Shown: positions 2,855 through 60,482, numbered from the stretch's first letter. The stretch: DNA of 64,000 bases from a virus (IMGVR_UViG_3300031368_000001:44286-108285); one strand, 5' to 3'. Notes: generated from the letters alone by a model not told the origin. Program-made: numbers and translations.

Positions 2855-2897
2855 GTTTATATACAGATATTTTTCTGGTTAATACTGTGCGTTATAC
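2855..2897 (+). mobile_element. attI-like primary recombination site A heading the left cassette array
   Basis: GTTTATATACAGATATTTTTCTGGTTAATACTGTGC/GTT; 36/39 identical to the reverse complement of 62076-62114; GTTATACGC (2891-2899) is the exact reverse complement of GCGTATAAC (3107-3115) closing cassette 1. Confidence 0.75.
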
Positions 2898-3444: not shown

Positions 3445-3505
3445 CCAATCGTTCAACAACCGACCGCCGATACAGCCCTGTGGCGGGTTAACTCAAACGT
3501 TAGGT
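3439..3505 (+). repeat. attC site A2
   Basis: TCCTAAC...CCGCC..GGCGG GTTAACTCAAAC GTTAGGT hairpin. Confidence 0.85.
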
Positions 3506-3669
3506 GGCAAGCATGAGAAAGCCTTTGACAGGGCATAGGCCATATCCGAGTGAAAGGATAGTACAGCCCATGGATAAGGCATCACACATGCAAGTCTGGT
3601 TGGCTATAACTATTATTGGCAATTAGCATTGCTGGTAGTTTAGGCAGTTCGATTCTGCCATTGCCACCT
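3503..3669 (+). ncRNA. ORF-less cassette A3 encoding a structured RNA with tRNA-like acceptor stem and T-arm
   Basis: GGTGGCAA/TTGCCACC terminal stem; GGCAG-TTCGATT-CTGCC T-arm; nested stems GCATG/CATGC, GCCTT/AAGGC, GGGC/GCCC, TATCC/GGATA. Confidence 0.6.
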
Positions 3670-3727
3670 AATAAATCCCTGAACCAGACGCCATAAAGCT
3701 CGGCGCTGGTTAGCTCAAGCGTTAAGG
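3666..3727 (+). repeat. attC site A3
   Basis: ACCTAAT...AACCAG-CGCC...GGCG-CTGGTTAGCTCAAGC-GTTAAGG. Confidence 0.82.
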
Positions 3728-3895: not shown

Positions 3896-3909
3896 CTCAG
3901 GCGTTATAA
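3848..3909 (+). repeat. attC site A4
   Basis: TCCCAAC-AAGTCGTTGAAGCAGAC...TGATTAACTCAGGC-GTTATAA. Confidence 0.75.
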
Positions 3910-3922
3910 TTTAAGAGGAAAA

Positions 3923-4171
3923 ATGAAAGAAGAAAAAAAAATATGCGACATGATTTTAAGTACTGTTTCACGCTTCAATGATGCTCAAAGTATTGGGATT
4001 GAGGTTCTAGAGAAATATAAGAACATGGATAAAGGCATAGTTCCAGAGTTGCAAGAAATCGCTTTTCATGTTCAGAGTTTAGCACGAGGCTGGCGTTCTC
4101 AGCAAGATCGGGCAGATGAGTGTTATGAGAAATATGCTGCATATAAAAAATATTGCAATGAAAATCTATAA
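3923..4171 (+). CDS. cassette A5 hypothetical protein (attC reduced to R'' CTATAAC)
   Basis: 82-aa ORF after GTTATAATT, ending ATCTATAAC with no following hairpin. Confidence 0.65.
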   Translation: MKEEKKICDMILSTVSRFNDAQSIGIEVLEKYKNMDKGIVPELQEIAFHVQSLARGWRSQQDRADECYEKYAAYKKYCNENL

Positions 4172-4459: not shown

Positions 4460-4719
4460 ATATGAGAAGCGCTATGGCCAGCGCAAGAGCGAGAACTTTA
4501 AATGAAAAATTCCATAAAAGTGCTGAAAACACTGTAAATAGATTACTAACAAGCCCCACACATTCAGCAAGAGTCTCTACAAAGTTAGCTAAACATATTT
4601 TGATACAACATGAAACTCTCTTATATAATGGAATAGTATATTCTACTCACGTAAGAAATATAGGCGCTGGTGTAAAGGAATTATATTTAAAGGAATTTCA
4701 TGAGGAGATAAGACCATGA
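4456..4719 (+). CDS. hypothetical protein
   Basis: ATGA-coupled to the upstream ORF. Confidence 0.65.
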   Translation: MNMRSAMASARARTLNEKFHKSAENTVNRLLTSPTHSARVSTKLAKHILIQHETLLYNGIVYSTHVRNIGAGVKELYLKEFHEEIRP

Positions 4720-4988
4720 CTGATAATGATGCCATGACCGACAATAACACCATCCGTGATGTAAACACCGTCCGTGATGTAAACACCGTCCGTGATGTAA
4801 ACACCGTCCGTGATGTAATAAAATTTAAAGTACATGTGATAAGAACAGGCTGGGCAAGTTTGGATATTGCTATCGCTGCAAAAGATAAGGATAGTGCAAA
4901 AACAAAAATTATGGATACTATTGGAGACTATGAATTCTCAGAATATGATGCTGAGTATGAAATAGAATCTATGGAGATAATACCATGA
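4716..4988 (+). CDS. hypothetical protein with NTVRDV repeats
   Basis: ATGA-coupled; contains an 18-bp tandem repeat. Confidence 0.6.
   Translation: MTDNDAMTDNNTIRDVNTVRDVNTVRDVNTVRDVIKFKVHVIRTGWASLDIAIAAKDKDSAKTKIMDTIGDYEFSEYDAEYEIESMEIIP
4746..4817 (+). repeat. 18-bp tandem repeat AACACCGTCCGTGATGTA x4 (extra copy at 5042-5059)
   Basis: Read directly from sequence. Confidence 0.9.
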
Positions 4989-5212
4989 CTGACAATACTA
5001 TGACTGATAATACCATGACCGATAATAATATGACTGATAATAACACCGTCCGTGATGTAATGAAAGATCGTATCCGGGATCTGTTGGCTGGATATTTTAG
5101 GATAGATAATTTAGATGTAGACGCTGATCTCGTAGCCAATATAGCTGATGAAGCTTTTTCGGTGACAGGGATAAGTGAGAAAGAACAGGATGAGGAGTGG
5201 AAAATTTTATAG
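4985..5212 (+). CDS. hypothetical protein with MTDNT repeats
   Basis: ATGA-coupled; N-terminus shares repeats with the previous ORF. Confidence 0.6.
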   Translation: MTDNTMTDNTMTDNNMTDNNTVRDVMKDRIRDLLAGYFRIDNLDVDADLVANIADEAFSVTGISEKEQDEEWKIL

Positions 5213-5407: not shown

Positions 5408-5587
5408 ATGAATACTTACATAGGCACTTACCAGGATATGATAGAAAGAACTGTAGAGCTGATCCTTGCCGCGGCAGAAAAAATTCATAATAAAGATGCT
5501 ATAAGTCGGATTTACACGGCCAACAGAGAGGTTGACACAAAAATTGGCAATATTATGGAGAATATCAGAAAGAAGAAGAGATCATGA
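5408..5587 (+). CDS. hypothetical protein
   Basis: ORF 5327-5587 in track; internal ATG (MNTYIG) is the more plausible start. Confidence 0.5.
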   Translation: MNTYIGTYQDMIERTVELILAAAEKIHNKDAISRIYTANREVDTKIGNIMENIRKKKRS

Positions 5588-5799
5588 CTAAACAGGAAAA
5601 GCGTAAGTACTGCATCGGCTGTAGAGACAATTTCTACAACGGCAATAATCCATATGGCATTAAGGAATGCTGGAATCTTAAAGATGCAAAATTCGTGAAA
5701 AGAAAAAAGATTCCTATAGATTTGAGCCCACCTTATGATCATATAAAAAAACAGAAAGTTTTGAGCTGCTATGGCCAAAAGGGGTATGTATATTGGTAG
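5584..5799 (+). CDS. small Cys-rich phage protein
   Basis: KYCIGCRDNFYNGNNPYGIKECW motif; ATGA-coupled. Confidence 0.7.
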   Translation: MTKQEKRKYCIGCRDNFYNGNNPYGIKECWNLKDAKFVKRKKIPIDLSPPYDHIKKQKVLSCYGQKGYVYW

Positions 5800-5802
5800 T
5801 TA

Positions 5803-5897
5803 GGTGGTAAATGCTGCTTATAAGCAGAGGGTCAGCTTGTATCTGACGTTTGATAGTAAACAAAACTATCATGCAGGGTTAAATCTGTATACCACCT
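5803..5897 (+). ncRNA. ORF-less cassette encoding a tRNA-like cloverleaf (TGT in anticodon position, long variable arm)
   Basis: GGTGGTA/TACCACC acceptor; CTGCT-TATA-AGCAG D-like arm; GTCAG-CTTGTAT-CTGAC anticodon arm; TGATAGT/ACTATCA extra arm; TGCAG-GGTTAAAT-CTGTA T-like arm; flanked by GTTA/TAAC. Confidence 0.65.
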
Positions 5898-5951
5898 AAC
5901 CAACCCACTAAGCTCGATAGCTAAAATTGCTGGTTAATTCAAGCGTTAGAT
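5894..5951 (+). repeat. attC site after the tRNA-like cassette
   Basis: ACCTAAC...CTGGTTAATTCAAGC-GTTAGAT; right arm resembles attC A3. Confidence 0.75.
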
Positions 5952-27352: not shown

Positions 27353-30300
27353 CTATTTAAAAATCACATTTTTTGGTAGGATCCACGCTTGAATCCCCTG
27401 TGGAACTTCTACTTCTCTCACTGGATCAAATTTCTCTATTACTTCAACTTCATACAAATATAAAGGATGCTGTTCATCCCACCACTCAATTCTTTCATAG
27501 TTCTCCACAAGATGCTCCTCATATCTTTCCTCAAATTCTTTCTGATTAATTTCTTTTGGTTCGGAAAGTTTAATAATTCCCCAGCAGTCTTTATCAGAAA
27601 TTAAGTAGAGAGGTTCATTGATGTGTTCAGTAAATTTTTTGGATTTTATTATGGCTGTTTTACTGCCATCCCAGATGTATTCAGAGTGTGGAGAAACTAG
27701 ATATAGCCCGGCTATCTCCTGATCTTTCTTAGCTTCGCCAATTTTTTGCAGAGTTTCGGGAAGTTTTTCTCTCACCAGACCATATAATTCTTTTGAAGTT
27801 TCCTTCATTTTTTCTGGTGAGAATGTGTAGTTCATCTTATCACTTTTAACTCGTTCTTTAATTTCTTTTATGATTTTTGTTGCATTCTCAAGTATTTGTT
27901 CTTTGGTAAATTTAATGCCTTTACCCTCAGTCTTCTTCCATGTAGAAAAATGCGCGCACACTATTCTAAAATCATCCCCAAGAACTTTATTGTCTACTCT
28001 AGATGGATCATAAGGAGTTTCATAAAAATTATCGTTTCTATAAAAATCATCGGGAAAGTTTTCTGCACTTTCTTCCTTTATTGTCTCGTTATAGGCAGTG
28101 AGAATTTTTTCTGCGAGTGAGTTCCACCATGTACTCCATTTTTCACCCTGATCGTTTCTTATTTTCCCAGCCACGCAGATTCTTGGTCTATTTCCCTGAC
28201 CAATATCGAATCCAACAAATAGATCAGATTGTTTTTTTAAGTTCGATACCATCTGTTCGTGAAGATCGTCATATTTTTCTGGCATTCTGAGCACGACAAA
28301 CGCAGGTCTGGATTCGCTTTTGCCTTCATCTGTTGATCTTATCTCAACTGGTAAATTATTGAGTTCCTCTAACCATTTTTCTTTGAGGCCTTCATCGACA
28401 GCTCTCCCTCTCCACATTTTTTTCGGAGCATCCGTTCTGCCAGACAAAAATTCTGCTGGTTTCTTATTATAGACTGTCTGATAAGCAAATGTTGGTGCAT
28501 TTATTTTTTCGCTGAATTCTTCTTCATTCTCAAATTTTTCCTCAAACTCTTCCTCCAGATCTATCTCTCCCCATTCTTCTCCTTCACTCGCTTCTTTTTT
28601 TTGTTGCAGCCATTCCCAGATTTTTTTCTGTTGTTCATTAGCAGTTCCGGCCTCGATATCTTTTTCAAGATTATCCATGTCTTTCCAGAGTAATCCTAGA
28701 TCAATTGCTTCAAAAATTGGTAATATTCCAGGCACAACTTTTAGAGTTCCTTTTAAAAACTTTGTGAGATTACCCAGGTGTTTTATTTTTAGCTTATTCA
28801 TTATTTGTTTAAGCAATCTTGCATTTAATTTTTCATCAATTTGTTTAACTGGAATTTCTTTTTTAAGTGCAGCATTAATGGAATGTTGTGTTCCTTTTGA
28901 GCCACCCTTTTGAATTGCTGTCATAGCATCTGCCTTACCAACTATATCCTTATTTCTGGTAAAAGCAGCCTGGCCATAAGAAATTTCTGAGACAGCTTTA
29001 CCTGTTTCTTTCGCAGCTCGTTTTACACCTGAATTTTCCACCACATTTGCTCCAAGATCTCTTACTTTTTTAAGAAGGGGCCTAACAGCAGCTGGCTGAC
29101 TTTCGATAGTTTTTGGTAAATAAACAGTTAATTTTTTACAGGCATTCTGTCGTAAGACTTCTCTGATTGATTCTTCATCTACTCCTTTCGCTCCGCCAGT
29201 TACAATCCCCCAGCCAGCATCAAGAGCTTTTTTGGTTTGGTAGCGTGTAGCTTGTAACATATTTGAAGTAGTTTCACGGGAACCGACTATAGCCATAGTT
29301 TTTATGGATGATATTTTTTTAAGTCCTGCCTCTCGAACTTCTGCCAGAATTTTACCCAGTTGATTTTGTCCTTTCCCTCCGCTCTTTCCCCAAAAAGTAT
29401 CTCCCCATGTATTATTTTCAACAATATCAATTCCTTTAGTGGCAATTAATTTTTCCATTAATTTTGGATTACTTTCAAATTTAGTCCTGACAATTCTTTT
29501 CATTACATCAGTCTTAATTTTTTCCCAGTCAGATCGAAGCGGAATTTTCCTTGCATATCTTTTAGCATCTCCTGGAGTCCTTAACTTTCTAATGGTTTCT
29601 CTGATTTCTGAATCCAATGTTTTTGCAGCTTGATAAGCATGTTCAGAAGTTGGATACACTTTTCCCTCGAATGAAGTTGGTGCTGGATGGAAATTTGATA
29701 AAAAATCATACTGACCACGGAAGGCTGAAGTCTCGGCAAAATCGTTGGTGAATTTTAATAGATCTTCAAACTCTTCACTACTCGATTCTGAGCTACTTGA
29801 TTCTTCATCTTCTTCAATAGTACCACTACTACTACTCATTTCTTCTTCAATATTCTCATAATCCTCTTCAAACCCTTCCGGTCCCACTACATGTATTAAT
29901 TCAACTTCTCCCTCTTCATGTTTCTCATAAATATAAATCGAGACATCGGCTGTCATTTTCTTGAGCCCCGGAATTGTCAGACCTCGACTCTTAAGAAAAT
30001 TTTTCAGCTTAGCCATATCCAAGGTTTCTTCAACCTTGATAAATCTTCCAAGTTTTTTCTTTTTGAGAGAATTAACCGCTGTTTTCTCGGAAACCACTTT
30101 GTAGTAAGCAGGAGTTCGCCTGAGAGAAAAGATATAACGAGTGGTTTCAACTTTCTTCATCCCAGTATCTTTAAGAACATCAGCCATAGCGCCCTGGATG
30201 GCTGAAATTTCTGAGTCCAGATCTTTGCGCGCCACTGGCGGGGTCTTGAAATAGTCCTCAAGTTTCTTCTTGGCTTTTCTCAGAGAGTCATGCAATGACT

Positions 30301-30544
30301 CGAGTTCTCTGAGTTTGGCTTTCGGAAGAATTTTCTTTTTTTCTTTTTTGACGAACTCGTCTATGTTGCCTTCAATAACATCATCAAACTTAGAAATATA
30401 TTCTTCCCAGGGGAAGTCTGAGCTGATGGTTTCTGTTGGCTCTTGACCTATTGGCTCTTGATCTGTTGGCTCTTCGCTGAGAACTTCAAGGTCTTGTTTA
30501 AGTGAGGTTATAAGATCTAACAAACGTTTTGCGAGATTTTTCAT
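27353..30544 (-). CDS. polyvalent protein: Gp157/Gam-like + NADAR + SLOG (DprA-like) + unknown + ASCH-like domains
   Basis: FRGQYDFLSNFH...SEHAYQAAK...WGDTFWG...NQLGKIL (NADAR); AIVGSR...IVTGGAKGVD...RNKDIV...SKGT (SLOG); GLYLVSPH...IWDGSKTAIIKS (ASCH-like); acidic Ser-rich linkers. Confidence 0.8.
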   Translation of the reverse strand: MKNLAKRLLDLITSLKQDLEVLSEEPTDQEPIGQEPTETISSDFPWEEYISKFDDVIEGNIDEFVKKEKKKILPKAKLRELESLHDSLRKAKKKLEDYFKTPPVARKDLDSEISAIQGAMADVLKDTGMKKVETTRYIFSLRRTPAYYKVVSEKTAVNSLKKKKLGRFIKVEETLDMAKLKNFLKSRGLTIPGLKKMTADVSIYIYEKHEEGEVELIHVVGPEGFEEDYENIEEEMSSSSGTIEEDEESSSSESSSEEFEDLLKFTNDFAETSAFRGQYDFLSNFHPAPTSFEGKVYPTSEHAYQAAKTLDSEIRETIRKLRTPGDAKRYARKIPLRSDWEKIKTDVMKRIVRTKFESNPKLMEKLIATKGIDIVENNTWGDTFWGKSGGKGQNQLGKILAEVREAGLKKISSIKTMAIVGSRETTSNMLQATRYQTKKALDAGWGIVTGGAKGVDEESIREVLRQNACKKLTVYLPKTIESQPAAVRPLLKKVRDLGANVVENSGVKRAAKETGKAVSEISYGQAAFTRNKDIVGKADAMTAIQKGGSKGTQHSINAALKKEIPVKQIDEKLNARLLKQIMNKLKIKHLGNLTKFLKGTLKVVPGILPIFEAIDLGLLWKDMDNLEKDIEAGTANEQQKKIWEWLQQKKEASEGEEWGEIDLEEEFEEKFENEEEFSEKINAPTFAYQTVYNKKPAEFLSGRTDAPKKMWRGRAVDEGLKEKWLEELNNLPVEIRSTDEGKSESRPAFVVLRMPEKYDDLHEQMVSNLKKQSDLFVGFDIGQGNRPRICVAGKIRNDQGEKWSTWWNSLAEKILTAYNETIKEESAENFPDDFYRNDNFYETPYDPSRVDNKVLGDDFRIVCAHFSTWKKTEGKGIKFTKEQILENATKIIKEIKERVKSDKMNYTFSPEKMKETSKELYGLVREKLPETLQKIGEAKKDQEIAGLYLVSPHSEYIWDGSKTAIIKSKKFTEHINEPLYLISDKDCWGIIKLSEPKEINQKEFEERYEEHLVENYERIEWWDEQHPLYLYEVEVIEKFDPVREVEVPQGIQAWILPKNVIFK

Positions 30545-45307: not shown

Positions 45308-45525
45308 GGCATAACCGATGGTGTTGATTTAGAAGTTGATCGAGCTTCAGCATAAATACATCCAAAATCTGGATCAATAAAAAATCCTTCGCAGTAGACA
45401 AGATGAATTAATCCAGATTCACCACGTATTTTGGGATTTATACAGTCCCATTTAGTATCAGGGTTTTTACCATCAGGGTCTGATAAATCATTTGACTTAT
45501 AGAATCTACAATCCTTACATTTCAC
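45301..45525 (-). CDS. small Cys-rich protein
   Basis: MKCKDCRFY...PDFGCI. Confidence 0.6.
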   Translation of the reverse strand: MKCKDCRFYKSNDLSDPDGKNPDTKWDCINPKIRGESGLIHLVYCEGFFIDPDFGCIYAEARSTSKSTPSVMPW

Positions 45526-48500
45526 TTACTTACTACCTCCTCACCGCTCTTTCCTGGCAAATAGTGTATCTTACCTTTTTTATCTATAATCTTTGCTTGA
45601 AATACATGATCTTTTATGGCCTGCCGTTCTATCTCATCTATAGTCTGAGGTTTCTTGTTTGTTATCCCGAGCATCCTTGGCGCCCATGCACTTAAATCAA
45701 AAGTTTTACTTCTGGCGTCATACGTGACATTGATTGTCTCAGCCTCAATAAGAATTCCAGATCCTTCGGCTGGATTTTCTTTTGTACTAAACGATTTCCC
45801 TACATGTACAGCTTTTTTTCCATTAATTTCTCGAGTATCCTTTTCTTCAATAACTCTATTGCCAGCCAGGATACCATATTCAAGGTTATACACCTCTTTT
45901 GTTTTAGTTTCAAGTGAATTCAACACAGTTGCGGTAAAAATAGTACTTACATGATATTTTATCCAAAGATTCTTTCTCCTATTTTTCAGGTCATAGGAAG
46001 AGGAGGCCTGTTTTGCTACATTTCCTTCAGAACCGTCTAACTTCCTCAATCTTTCCGTCTCTTTTTTCAATTCCTCTCGATTTTCATTTTTTGTATGTGG
46101 AATCAAATTCCAATTATGTTTCGGATCTGGAAGTTCAGTTTTTTGCGGAAAGTTTAATTTTTGCAGCAGCTCCCGGCGTTCTTCAAACGGGTTTTTATGA
46201 ATATCTTTATCGTAAAAAATCATGTCATAGACATTAAGAATAATACCATCTTCATTAGGATTTATTTTATGGATATTACCAGCTGCAACTTCGCGAGGAT
46301 AGTGCTGACCATCTTCCCACCATTCTGCTTCAGCTAAGAGAATCATATCATGCCCAGGAGATAACTTTTTGGCTTCTTCAATAGTCTGAGGGAAAGAACT
46401 AGTTTCGTCAACACCATCCTCTGTATAAACTATTACTTTACCATCTTTCGAGATGTGCCATTCTGTGTTTATACCATCGGCCTTCCTGGAAGAATTATGC
46501 GCTATAACTCCAGGAATATAACTTTCATCTTCAGTTTGGATGTTAAAAAGTTCTTCCTTATTTCTTGAAAGAAATTCGATGTCTAATATCGGAATCCAAA
46601 AATACTCTTCATCATCCCACCATTTCTGATAAGATCTTAATGGAGGATCTTTGATTTCTGGCCATTTAATTCGTTCAATTTGTTTTCCAGTTACTACAAC
46701 TTCCCATCCACCCAGAGAGCTACTTTTATAGCCATTCAGTTCAAAACTTTTAGGTGAAGTTCGATATTTTACAGCTAGAAGGTTTAATTGATTTAGTAGT
46801 ACCAAAAGTTGATTAGCAATAGTTTCTGAATGAGTTGAAAAACGAAAACCCGAGGCATGTAATGCACCATCACCTCGCCAATATCCATATAGAAATGCTA
46901 AAAGTTGTTCTTTAGAGAGATGAAATACGAAATCTGGAATTTTTTTATTTCGAGCACCAGTATTAAACAATTTGGCAAACGCCCTTGAGAGAACTGTTGA
47001 ATTAAGCTGTATTCTACAAGCATGATCTAAATAATAAATCTTTGGAGAACGAAAATATTTCTCACATAAATAACTTGTTTCTTCAATTAAATCAGTTTCA
47101 TGTAGACCAAATGAAAACCCAATACCTTTTCCTCCCCCTGCATCTCCTTCAGCTAAATATAAACCAAACAGCCTATAGAGATCAGATTCTCCGTGAATTC
47201 TAAAATTAAAAAAATCAATAACTTCATTTTTTTGAATATAACCCTTGCCTCGAGTTAAACTTTTCAATCCAGATATTTTTGCGAAATTAAAAGAGAATTT
47301 TTTTATTTGATTCCTGATTTTTGGTATAGCAAGAAAATCACCAGTTTCAAGAGAATTAGCTTCTATCCACTTAGCTTTATAATTTTTATATCGATGCTGA
47401 CATCCGTACTTCTGCTCACCACAATTTTTTCTACAGACAAGATGTTTACGATTAGACCATGAACATTTTTGAGATTTGATTGCCAAAAATTTGTGATCAG
47501 CAGAGCAGATAAGTGGATCTTGTTGATTTAATAATTTAATTTTTCGTAGAGAGCGATCATCTATAGTTGAAAATATCCCTAACACTTCTTGCAATTTTCC
47601 AGACTTGGAATAAACTTTATCACCAATTTGTATCTCTTGAATTTTTTTGAATTTTTTGCCCCAGACTATTGTATCTCTATGAAAACAATATACAGGAAAT
47701 TGGTCATCAGTCCAGAGTGAAAGAAAGGATTCAAGCGATTGAGCTTGACCTGGCAAAAATCCGCGTTTTGGCTTCATGGCTAAAATAAACTCATTAAAAG
47801 TAACTTTATCATTTTTTGCTGCTTTGTTTGCTTCAGCTTGTTGCTTATTAGTATTCTTTGTTCTTAGTTTTATCTCAGCTTTCACATCCAACTCTCCGAC
47901 ATCTAACTCTTCCATCTTCACAATCTCTGCATCAGGAATTCTTTCCATGATTAGACGATAAAGTGGAAGATAGCTTGTAAACGGGCTCATCCCTCCTTTT
48001 TCTTCTGTAAGTAATTGTAATCTATTTTGTAAATTTTTGGGAAACATTCGATGAATTCTAAATTCAATAATTCGTTTAAGTTCCTCTTCAGATGGAATAG
48101 TCAAGAGAATATCCGCATCATTCTTTGTTCCTTCCGGATGAGTAATTATTCCTCCGACTATCCATGATACTGGATCACATACCTCAAAATCTTTGAAGTA
48201 AGGTTCAATATCTTTAAGTTGTATTACCGTTCCTAATTTTTCTCCACTGGGACCAACCGGGGCGTACTCTGCATCTTTCTCCGGTAAAGGCAAAATTTCT
48301 TTAACTTTATCGTGGTTAATTTTTTCAATTTGGTAAATAGCTTTTTCTTTATGATTATCACACACTGGAATAAAAGCTCGTCCTTCTGCCCAAACAATTG
48401 CTAGTGTAGCAGACTTGCTGCAGTATTTGCATTTATGCGGTCTTTGCAAAGAACTCTCTCGAAATGTATGCTCAGTTGGAATAATTGGTAATGTCTTAAT

Positions 48501-48737
48501 TTTCGCTATCTCACTCAGCATTTTTGCTTCAAGATCGAGATCAGTTTCTTTAAATGGCAAAGACTTTTTTCGTTTTTTGAGCTCTGCTTTAATTAACAGA
48601 AATTTATTTATAATTTTTTCATCCTGGGAATTAAGATGATCAGCTTTCCATTTAGTATAATCTTCACGGAGTTTCTCAACCTCTGCTCTTAGTTGGGTGA
48701 CTGACTTTTTAGTGTCTGATAATTCATCAAGATTCAT
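45522..48737 (-). CDS. multidomain ATP-dependent DNA ligase-like protein (Zn finger + minimal nucleotidyltransferase-like + ligase adenylation/OB) containing an intein
   Basis: After splicing: FPVY|SSRKADG (motif I), LLAEA (III), VYDMI (IIIa), SEGNVAK (IV), WIKY (V); N-terminal CKYC...CDNH and VGGI...NDADILL. Confidence 0.8.
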   Translation of the reverse strand: MNLDELSDTKKSVTQLRAEVEKLREDYTKWKADHLNSQDEKIINKFLLIKAELKKRKKSLPFKETDLDLEAKMLSEIAKIKTLPIIPTEHTFRESSLQRPHKCKYCSKSATLAIVWAEGRAFIPVCDNHKEKAIYQIEKINHDKVKEILPLPEKDAEYAPVGPSGEKLGTVIQLKDIEPYFKDFEVCDPVSWIVGGIITHPEGTKNDADILLTIPSEEELKRIIEFRIHRMFPKNLQNRLQLLTEEKGGMSPFTSYLPLYRLIMERIPDAEIVKMEELDVGELDVKAEIKLRTKNTNKQQAEANKAAKNDKVTFNEFILAMKPKRGFLPGQAQSLESFLSLWTDDQFPVYCFHRDTIVWGKKFKKIQEIQIGDKVYSKSGKLQEVLGIFSTIDDRSLRKIKLLNQQDPLICSADHKFLAIKSQKCSWSNRKHLVCRKNCGEQKYGCQHRYKNYKAKWIEANSLETGDFLAIPKIRNQIKKFSFNFAKISGLKSLTRGKGYIQKNEVIDFFNFRIHGESDLYRLFGLYLAEGDAGGGKGIGFSFGLHETDLIEETSYLCEKYFRSPKIYYLDHACRIQLNSTVLSRAFAKLFNTGARNKKIPDFVFHLSKEQLLAFLYGYWRGDGALHASGFRFSTHSETIANQLLVLLNQLNLLAVKYRTSPKSFELNGYKSSSLGGWEVVVTGKQIERIKWPEIKDPPLRSYQKWWDDEEYFWIPILDIEFLSRNKEELFNIQTEDESYIPGVIAHNSSRKADGINTEWHISKDGKVIVYTEDGVDETSSFPQTIEEAKKLSPGHDMILLAEAEWWEDGQHYPREVAAGNIHKINPNEDGIILNVYDMIFYDKDIHKNPFEERRELLQKLNFPQKTELPDPKHNWNLIPHTKNENREELKKETERLRKLDGSEGNVAKQASSSYDLKNRRKNLWIKYHVSTIFTATVLNSLETKTKEVYNLEYGILAGNRVIEEKDTREINGKKAVHVGKSFSTKENPAEGSGILIEAETINVTYDARSKTFDLSAWAPRMLGITNKKPQTIDEIERQAIKDHVFQAKIIDKKGKIHYLPGKSGEEVVSK
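46494..47687 (-). mobile_element. intein with LAGLIDADG homing endonuclease (398 aa)
   Basis: Starts CFHRDTIV, block B CSADHKFL, LFGLYLAEGD and FLYGYWRGDG motifs, ends LFNIQTEDESY...AHN followed by Ser. Confidence 0.92.
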
Positions 48738-59858: not shown

Positions 59859-60404
59859 TTATATTCGTTTTTGTCCATAATCCTTCTTTTTGATTTTTCC
59901 CATTCTTCCATCAGGGTGGTGAAATACGATTCCTTCAATGTCCTTATCTTTCATGAAATCGGATATACCTTCAAATGTTCTCTGCACGGTTTTAAATACT
60001 TGAGCTTTCTCATGTTTCACAAGGGCATGAACATTATATCCCTCTGGATTCCCTTGAATTTTTGGCCCGACAAGCTCATATGTGCCATCAGATAGCTTTT
60101 CTGAGAAAGTTTCCATGTGCCACCGGTCTTCTTTAAGGCTTCGATCTACTGGAACCCAACCAACACGCTTCCCTGTATTTTCATCAAATTCTTCTTCAAT
60201 AAAATTATTTGGTGCAACCCTACCCTTTTTTACTTCTCTGCGTTTGAAATAATTCCCGTTTTCTATTTTTACGCATGTGCCGTCATATTTTCGAGTCGCC
60301 ACGCCTTCACCATTAAAAACCCATTCACAATCAAGATGATGTTCATGAAGGATTTCACGCATATTCTCAGGGTTCCTTTTAAAGATTGTTGGTATTTTCC
60401 TCAT
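59859..60404 (-). CDS. cassette B7 RNA-ligase-like protein (DUF5565/RLIG1-like)
   Basis: ATRKYDGTC (motif I KxDG), TYELVGPKIQGNP, IEGIVFHH..G.M.KIK. Confidence 0.75.
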   Translation of the reverse strand: MRKIPTIFKRNPENMREILHEHHLDCEWVFNGEGVATRKYDGTCVKIENGNYFKRREVKKGRVAPNNFIEEEFDENTGKRVGWVPVDRSLKEDRWHMETFSEKLSDGTYELVGPKIQGNPEGYNVHALVKHEKAQVFKTVQRTFEGISDFMKDKDIEGIVFHHPDGRMGKIKKKDYGQKRI

Positions 60405-60482
60405 GACTCTTCCTCCTTTCAAAGAATATAACGCTTGAGCTAACCAGCCGTGTGATTAGCACGGTCTGAGTTGAGTGATTCG

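Follow-up and report, generated by a model that had tools for sequence, protein, structure and literature searches.

Some integron cassettes are without a recognisable gene, and so far only promoters and, once, an sRNA have been assigned to them (PMC8876359, PMC6557892, PMC11014356). The question of what such a cassette may carry is raised by a small unit in a 64,000-nucleotide stretch of viral DNA (hereafter the window), which comprises bases 44286-108285 of a 108,285-bp IMG/VR virus record that CheckV rates as 77% complete. An initial annotation had described the unit as an ORF-less cassette encoding a tRNA-mimicking RNA, and as one member of a family of such cassettes. The first part of this description stands in so far as the unit is of integron type, has its own attC and holds no convincing protein gene, but it has to be qualified, as a 37-codon frame starting with ATG is present. 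The unit belongs to an attC array borne by the phage and is itself a mobile cassette of integron type. With regard to its cargo, the reading preferred here, on balance and tentatively, is that of a non-decoding, highly structured tRNA-like RNA of about 165 nt, and not of a protein gene. The features on which this reading draws are collected in Table 1, and the alternatives are weighed below where the evidence bears on them.

Table 1. Positions of the cassette, its predicted RNA elements and related features, in coordinates of the window.
Feature	Position	Strand	Remarks
attI-like array head	2855..2893	+	Conserved in sister phages, but followed there by other cassettes
Integron-type gene cassette, 222 nt	3500..3721	+	G/TT crossovers at 3499/3500 and 3721/3722; attC-flanked
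Closing stem, 5' strand	3499..3510	+	R' core GTTAGGT plus 5-nt extension GGCAA; pairs with 3661-3672 in the MFE and centroid structures
81-nt interrupted long arm	3511..3591	+	Nested stems of 5+2+5+2+4+2+5 bp
37-codon ORF	3513..3626	+	From ATG; 40 codons from GTG at 3504
Weak 4-bp hairpin, loop UGGUU	3593..3605	+	In the MFE and centroid structures; not in the initial annotation
12-bp hairpin, loop UAGC, four G.U pairs	3612..3639	+	Class II variable-arm position, just 5' of the T-arm
T-arm-like hairpin, GGCAG-UUCGAUU-CUGCC	3643..3659	+	G53-C61-type closing pair; canonical T-loop letters
Closing stem, 3' strand	3661..3672	+	5-nt extension TTGCC plus R'' core ACCTAAT of the cassette's own attC
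The cassette's own attC	3666..3727	+	R'' ACCTAAT, L''/L' stem with one bulged base, R' GTTAAGG
Second ORF-poor cassette	5800..5945	+	11-bp closing stem with T-like hairpin directly abutting; same layout, no sequence homology

The contig, its attC arrays and the mobility of their cassettes

The contig carries phage genes, including those for a Mu-type portal, a terminase, a primase-polymerase and helicases, and its sole canonical tRNA, a tRNA-Pro, lies 49 kb from the cassette. Two attC arrays are found, one at each end of the window, in which small units are split by imperfect palindromes of about 60 bp. These palindromes terminate in ...GGTTARCTCARGC-GTTAR and match the classical integron 59-base elements in architecture and almost in sequence. 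About 16 attC sites belonging to one family are distributed over both arrays, and the flanking sites are 59-be-like (...GGTTARCTCARGCGTTAR). No match to PF00589, the domain of the tyrosine recombinases that include IntI, was found in the 108-kb contig (77% complete), and the arrays therefore represent CALINs rather than a complete integron.

Evidence for cassette exchange comes from related phages. A metagenome search with the upstream DUF2201 protein gene (906-2330) retrieved at least three sister contigs with flanks that are 77-90% identical. In two of them, L048 and L050, the attI-like site (at ~3900-3940 and ~1840-1877, respectively) and its flanks are as in the window, and the cassettes behind are entirely different. 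The occurrence of different cassettes behind one attI-like site in sister phages indicates that the phage array is really shuffled. Word scans of IMG/VR with the attI-like site gave either nothing or chance matches among the matches listed.

Some other features of these genomes were recorded in passing. On the minus strand of the window, a 1071-aa ORF (45522-48737) contains ATP-dependent DNA ligase and LAGLIDADG domains and may represent an intein or a homing-endonuclease insertion, and a 1063-aa fusion (27353-30544) joins a Pam3 gp33-like/Gam-like N-terminal region to NADAR and DprA-like domains. Small early genes at 4716-5050 of the window and at 5800-5872 of L048 have short tandem repeats inside (ACCGTCCGTGATGTAAAC units in the one style, ATGACTGAT/ATGACCGAC, equivalent to Met-Thr-Asp units, in the other), and a 14-nt tandem repeat of L048, CCAGCTAGTTATTA, continues to the end of that contig.

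The cassette at 3500-3721 and the nature of its closing stem

The attC of the cassette presents the architecture by which integron cassettes are recognised, that is, an imperfect R''-L''...L'-R' palindrome (RYYYAAC...GTTRRRY) with a bulged base and a G/TT crossover, and in the fold of its bottom strand the L-box stem is bulged. Within 3500-3721, a scan with a sigma-70-like consensus detected no promoter-like site on either strand, and no terminator-like site is found in the same interval. The G+C content of the interior reaches 45%, versus 28-42% in the neighbouring cassettes.

The complementary ends of the unit had been interpreted as an acceptor-like stem, an interpretation that loses much of its force when the layout of the array is considered. 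The first base of the cassette follows directly on the G of the R' core upstream (G/TTAGGT), and the cassette carries its own R'' (ACCTAAY); a cassette laid out in this way always has first bases that complement its own R''. Here, this complement extends over 12 bp, including a terminal G.U pair, and GGTGGCAA/TTGCCACC correspond to its positions 3503-3510/3661-3668. The stem is thus largely the R'/R'' complement (GTTAGGT/ACCTAA) with 5 bp added, and the perfect complement of protein-coding cassettes covers a range of 3-16 bp, with many at 8-10 bp and others at 3-6 bp. A protein-coding cassette from another viral contig, unrelated and GC-rich (L005), even has identical GTTAGGTGG...CCACCTAAC ends. 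Given that protein cassettes can have such long R'/R'' complements, the shared GGTGGYA...TRCCACC ends, from which kinship between two cassettes of the window had been proposed, are weak evidence of kinship and mostly reflect attC. As a general caution, complementarity between the 5' and 3' ends in cassette arrays stems from the recombination site and does not by itself make an RNA acceptor stem.

The predicted RNA fold

The structural part of the initial annotation held up well, since the closing stem, the interrupted arm, the long hairpin and the T-arm were all recovered where they had been placed. The hairpin at 3643-3659 has the 5-bp stem, the G53-C61 pair and the UUCRANY loop of a tRNA T-arm. 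Unlike in real tRNAs, one unpaired base, A3660, intervenes between this hairpin and the closing stem, which has 12 bp rather than the 7 of an acceptor stem stacked on a T-stem and doubles as the R'/R'' complement. The loop of the additional hairpin at 3593-3605, a hairpin that is weak alone, possibly supplies a D-loop-like GG according to the predicted fold.

The stability of the fold was compared with that of shuffled sequences. The whole element has a predicted energy of -65.8 kcal/mol and a z-score of -4.93, equalled by 0 of 200 shuffles, and it reaches z -4.0 on the minus strand. When the closing stem is left out, the interior gives z -2.48 on the plus strand (4 of 200 shuffles are as good) and -1.36 on the minus strand. 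Among the parts, the 81-nt arm by itself has z -3.86 (0 of 200 shuffles as good) and the 12-bp hairpin plus the T-arm z -3.30; the same statistic yields -0.8 and +0.2 for the two adjacent coding cassettes. The element contains seven G.U pairs, four of them in the helix at 3612-3639, and on the minus strand, where G.U turns into A.C, this helix breaks up. Collectively, these calculations support the view that the element is unusually structured on the transcribed (+) strand. As for the T-arm motif, chance alone would produce 0.56 copies per contig of a perfect 5-bp stem enclosing a TTCRANY loop, and three are observed in the 108 kb, one in the tRNA-Pro and two elsewhere, including 3643-3659.

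Stems of this kind could also act at the level of DNA, as hairpins for recombination, either in the form of an extended folded attC or as a T-arm-shaped core site, with 5-bp inverted repeats and a 7-bp spacer, for a tyrosine recombinase directed at tRNA genes, as known from tRNA-linked insertion modules. The outer stem is indeed an attC feature, and perfect stems fold on either strand. However, the structure is clearly better on the plus strand and attC recombination relies on the bottom one, and no recombinase is found in the contig. Moreover, the 23-nt word formed by the T-arm plus the acceptor strand, which an attP/attB pair would share, occurs in no genome among 185,579 species. A DNA-level role of the folds is accordingly rated as very unlikely. 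The idea that the 3' end of the RNA might be an attP-like copy of a host tRNA was considered separately and is left unsupported by the absence of that word.

The 37-codon reading frame

An SD-like AGGTGG (3502-3507), situated within the 5' strand of the closing stem, precedes the ATG at 3513 by 5 nt, and the frame that follows lies on the coding strand of the array. The cassette might hence be one for a small protein, with a 37-aa peptide translated from the R'-embedded AGGTGG and with folds that are incidental or regulatory. Similar starts exist in other cassettes: the ORF of L048 cassette 1 begins behind GTTAGGTGA, where an R'-embedded AGGTGA serves as SD, and that of the L005 cassette behind GTTAGGTGG. 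The AGGTGG is, however, largely dictated by the R' core, and in the cassette at 5800 the same AGGTGG is followed, as judged by eye, by just an 11-codon ATG frame. The codon score of the 37-codon ORF, 0.04, falls in the lowest 2.3% of true-gene windows, compared with 0.19-0.23 for the neighbouring small cassette genes, and the frame ends 39 nt short of R'', whereas other cassette ORFs extend into attC. In the predicted fold, both the SD and the AUG would be sequestered by base pairing.

No homologue of the peptide was found in a word-indexed set of 5.8 billion clusters, at near or longer lengths, or in 1.84 billion representatives, all of which were scanned with phmmer. One phmmer match to the ORF, P0001, was discarded as an artefact of a 17-fold tandem repeat. 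A small-protein cassette would, in addition, leave the T-arm and the z-scores unexplained. On these sequence criteria, the cassette appears to be without a convincing protein gene and coding by the 37-codon frame is unlikely; as an account of the cassette as a whole, with its folds, a small-protein function is regarded as quite improbable.

Searches for relatives of the RNA

The RNA had been likened to tmRNA and to Y-RNA-like molecules, and a comparison with Rfam had been suggested; neither led to a known family. Rfam, including its tRNA, tmRNA and Y-RNA-like models, returned nothing relevant at gathering thresholds or, on narrow slices (241 nt), at E<=10, and ARAGORN with default settings recognised no tRNA and no tmRNA in the element, its tmRNA mode giving none even at a 70% threshold. 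The lone Rfam match (14.9 bits, minus strand) was dismissed, as it corresponds to the T-arm read backwards. Only poor tRNA solutions were obtained from ARAGORN at thresholds of 70-80%, among which a 'tRNA-Ala with 59-nt intron' at 80% was rejected as unconvincing. In silico deletion of the 81-nt arm yields merely a poor cloverleaf at the 80% threshold.

Searches for the sequence itself were likewise negative. No relative of the RNA was detected by blastn against phages and plasmids, and exact and gapped patterns run on IMG/VR, JGI metagenomes and GTDB genomes revealed no copy of it among the matches listed. A looser pattern (T-loop plus TGCCACMTAA) produced, among the matches listed, two chance matches in coding sequences and an element from a Hufsiella prophage, described below. 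A covariance model of 3499-3672 matched only itself in 489 kb of sequence, in which the sister contigs and 39 viral loci with attC sites were included, with no match to the 5800 cassette or to L050, and a T-arm motif scan of the attC-bearing viral loci found no cassette-borne T-arms. The RNA of the cassette is consequently a single sequence in all the collections searched.

With regard to possible partner proteins, the incomplete contig contains no detectable CCA enzyme, RtcB or Rnl2-type ligase and no Ro (TROVE) protein. A retron ncRNA was considered and rejected, as the sole RVT_1 signal (15.6 bits) falls in a glycosyltransferase and no RT was found.

Other tRNA-like cassettes in the lineage

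Architecture, rather than sequence, speaks for a class of such cassettes. In a census of 21 cassettes, made up of arrays A and B of the window, L048 and L050, the ORFs of 17 reach at least 52 aa, and in none of these 17 does a T-like hairpin lie beside R''; three of them have weak 4-bp hairpins, with non-T loops only. The ORFs of the other 4 of the 21 do not exceed 40 aa, and three of these four ORF-poor cassettes combine a closing stem of 11-12 bp, a T-loop-like hairpin placed 0-1 nt from that stem and a helix just 5' of it. Their stems are the longest closing stems but one.

Apart from the cassette at 3500-3721, the layout is found in the cassette at 5800-5945 and in the first cassette of L050. 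The 5800 unit has no attC upstream and starts at a GTT (5797-5805) right after the stop codon of the ORF at 5584-5799, as if it had been inserted at a secondary site or had lost its upstream attC. L050 cassette 1 (1875-2157 of contig Ga0315541_1019709) was found via a neighbouring protein, independently of any RNA pattern, and is ORF-less. It starts with G/TTATGTGGCAG and ends with ...GCAGGTTCGAATCCTCCTGCCACATAAC, which gives a 12-bp closing stem overlapping R'/R'', and its hairpin, with the T-loop TTCGAAT adjoining TGCCACATAAC, lies directly against this stem. The 5' part of the cassette, GTGGCGGAATTGG..., is presumably the D-arm of a tRNA-Leu-type gene. If 65 nt lying between ATTGG repeats are dropped, GCG-GAATTGGTAGA-CGC is restored, and ARAGORN then reports a cloverleaf provided that a second insert, of 68 nt, is allowed in the anticodon loop. 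From its sequence, L050 cassette 1 looks like a tRNA-derived element, namely a tRNA-Leu-type gene whose D-loop is interrupted by a 65-nt insert and which contains a further insert of ~68 nt.

A comparable element exists outside the arrays, in a prophage of Hufsiella ginkgonis (184 nt; L054:7669-7852, minus strand, in NZ_WVHS01000003.1, and also in the provirus record L052). It has a good acceptor stem, the start of a D-arm, a T-arm and ~125 nt of inserts, scores 27.1 bits with the Rfam tRNA model, just below the 29-bit threshold, goes undetected by ARAGORN and occurs in only one of 201 genomes of its order. L050 cassette 1 resembles this element, with a local alignment that was beaten by 1 of 500 shuffles. 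When the R boxes are left out of the comparison, the RNA of 3500-3721 is not significantly similar to the 5800 unit (their local alignment scores below the shuffle mean) or to the other tRNA-like units. The proposal of a family of tRNA-mimic cassettes is therefore retained only in part, as the layout recurs in 5800-5945 and L050 1875-2157, and in 0 of the 17 ORF cassettes, but sequence homology is lacking. What these comparisons support is the idea of a class that would be defined by architecture and by the apparent tRNA ancestry of at least one member, with no sequence homology among members.

The resemblance of L050 cassette 1 to a tRNA gene with two large inserts also suggests a relic, in which a former tRNA or tRNA-like gene would now be a decaying, insertion-riddled pseudogene without present function. 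In agreement with this, the RNA of 3500-3721 is without D-stem and anticodon arm and fails every tRNA model, no homologue, and hence no conservation signal, is seen in the collections searched, and L050 cassette 2 (2158-2297) is ORF-less (its largest ORF has 20 codons) with an interior that is not notably structured (z ~ -0.1). Nevertheless, decay would erode features such as the T-arm and the closing stem, both of which are perfect, and it accords poorly with the z-score of the 81-nt arm and with a G.U-rich helix retained on the transcribed strand only. For these reasons, a relic is considered unlikely.

Finally, an orphan junk cassette could fold well and contain a T-loop-like hairpin by accident. 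The chance expectation for the T-arm motif and the 4 of 200 shuffles that match the interior are in line with this, as is the fact that the element was picked by eye among many windows. An accident is hard to reconcile, however, with the placement of the hairpin exactly against the closing stem, and with the recurrence of the arrangement in two other ORF-poor cassettes, one of them from an independently retrieved sister phage, when no ORF cassette has it. Chance is thus seen as a highly improbable explanation.

A proposed function for the cassette

At the level of the lineage, the most parsimonious view is that RNAs derived from tRNAs or mimicking them, and bearing large expansion arms, are carried as cassette cargo. 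The preferred reading for the present unit, that of a non-decoding tRNA-like RNA, can be developed into a tentative mechanism. The RNA would copy certain parts of a tRNA, namely a canonical T-arm one base away from a long closing helix and a long helix in the position of the variable arm. The small GG-loop hairpin may replace the D-loop, the 81-nt arm would be an addition, and there is no anticodon arm, so that the RNA cannot decode. The closing helix would play a dual role, as the R'/R'' complement in DNA and as an acceptor-like stem in RNA. With neither a promoter nor a terminator inside it, the cassette would be read through within a polycistronic transcript of the array. In such a transcript, the closing helix and the T-arm may form a tRNA-like minihelix with an elbow, which the tRNA-processing machinery of the host (RNase P for the 5' side, together with 3' trimming) could recognise. 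These two elements are the part of a tRNA that is read by RNase P and by the 3' processing enzymes, which makes the excision of the RNA and the punctuation of the polycistron plausible. The products of processing would be a stable RNA without decoding capacity and a polycistron severed at this site. As a speculation, the freed RNA might behave as a tRNA mimic, for instance as a decoy for a host factor that binds tRNAs.

A broader version of this proposal applies to the lineage as a whole, which would exchange, as attC cassettes, anticodon-less class II tRNA-like RNAs, each with a closing stem, a variable-arm-like helix, a T-arm and large expansion arms, that are excised from the array transcript by tRNA-processing enzymes and act as mimics, for instance as decoys against tRNA-targeting host defences, or as substrates for anticodon-independent synthetases. 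It is put forward as a rather doubtful extension. The evidence for a function of the RNA is thin, because it consists of one sequence without relatives. If the proposal were true, 'empty' cassettes would gain an RNA function and the R'/R'' stem would double as an RNA acceptor stem. A tRNA-shaped RNA as the cargo of a mobile phage cassette would add a new type to the known functions of cassettes, and would tie integron-style gene shuffling to the conflicts between phages and hosts over tRNAs.

The cassette pool of the contig also includes an RLIG1-type RNA ligase, carried by a mobile cassette of the second array on the minus strand (59859-60422; 186 aa, PF17720, 41 bits with a cut-off of 25, KYDG motif), which hints, though weakly, at themes of RNA or tRNA repair.

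Comparison with known systems

Clusters of attC sites without integrase (CALINs) have already been described in phage genomes (PMC9892861), in a paper where tRNA is mentioned 0 times. The arrays studied here agree with them in being integrase-less and in having cassettes in one orientation; they differ in that two arrays are present with a common attI-like head, and in that the cassette content varies between sister phages. The ORF-less integron cassettes known so far, which include that of sRNA-Xcc1 of Xanthomonas and the promoter-bearing ones of Treponema and Vibrio, share with the present unit a classical 3' attC and the absence of a convincing ORF. In contrast to them, the unit has no promoter-like site, its cargo would be tRNA-shaped instead of a linear sRNA, and it belongs to a phage and not to a bacterial array. 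None of the papers in the collection searched unites integron, attC and tRNA-like.

Among RNAs, the closest shapes are those of the class II tRNAs and their non-canonical kin, such as tRNA-Leu, tRNA-Ser, tRNA-Sec and the allo-tRNAs. Like them, the RNA has canonical T-loop letters, a closing stem of acceptor-like character and, directly 5' of the T-arm, a long helix. It departs from them in having neither an anticodon arm nor a proper D-stem, in its 81-nt extra arm and in the unpaired A3660, and it fails the Rfam tRNA model (RF00005) at E<=10 as well as default ARAGORN.

In tmRNA and the bacterial Y-RNA-like YrlA, mimicry of the acceptor and T-arm is joined to a large non-tRNA domain in a non-decoding RNA, a combination that the predicted fold of the window RNA shares. 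It has no tag-peptide architecture and no ARAGORN or Rfam match, unlike tmRNA. The ends of YrlA form a Ro-binding helix; the topology of the window RNA is unlike that of YrlA, and the contig contains no Ro/TROVE protein. Lastly, species 1 and 2 RNAs of T4 are small, stable, structured phage RNAs that are processed together with tRNAs. Like them, the element would be a small structured RNA from an early or accessory region of a phage genome, but it is distinguished from them by being a mobile attC cassette located outside any tRNA cluster.
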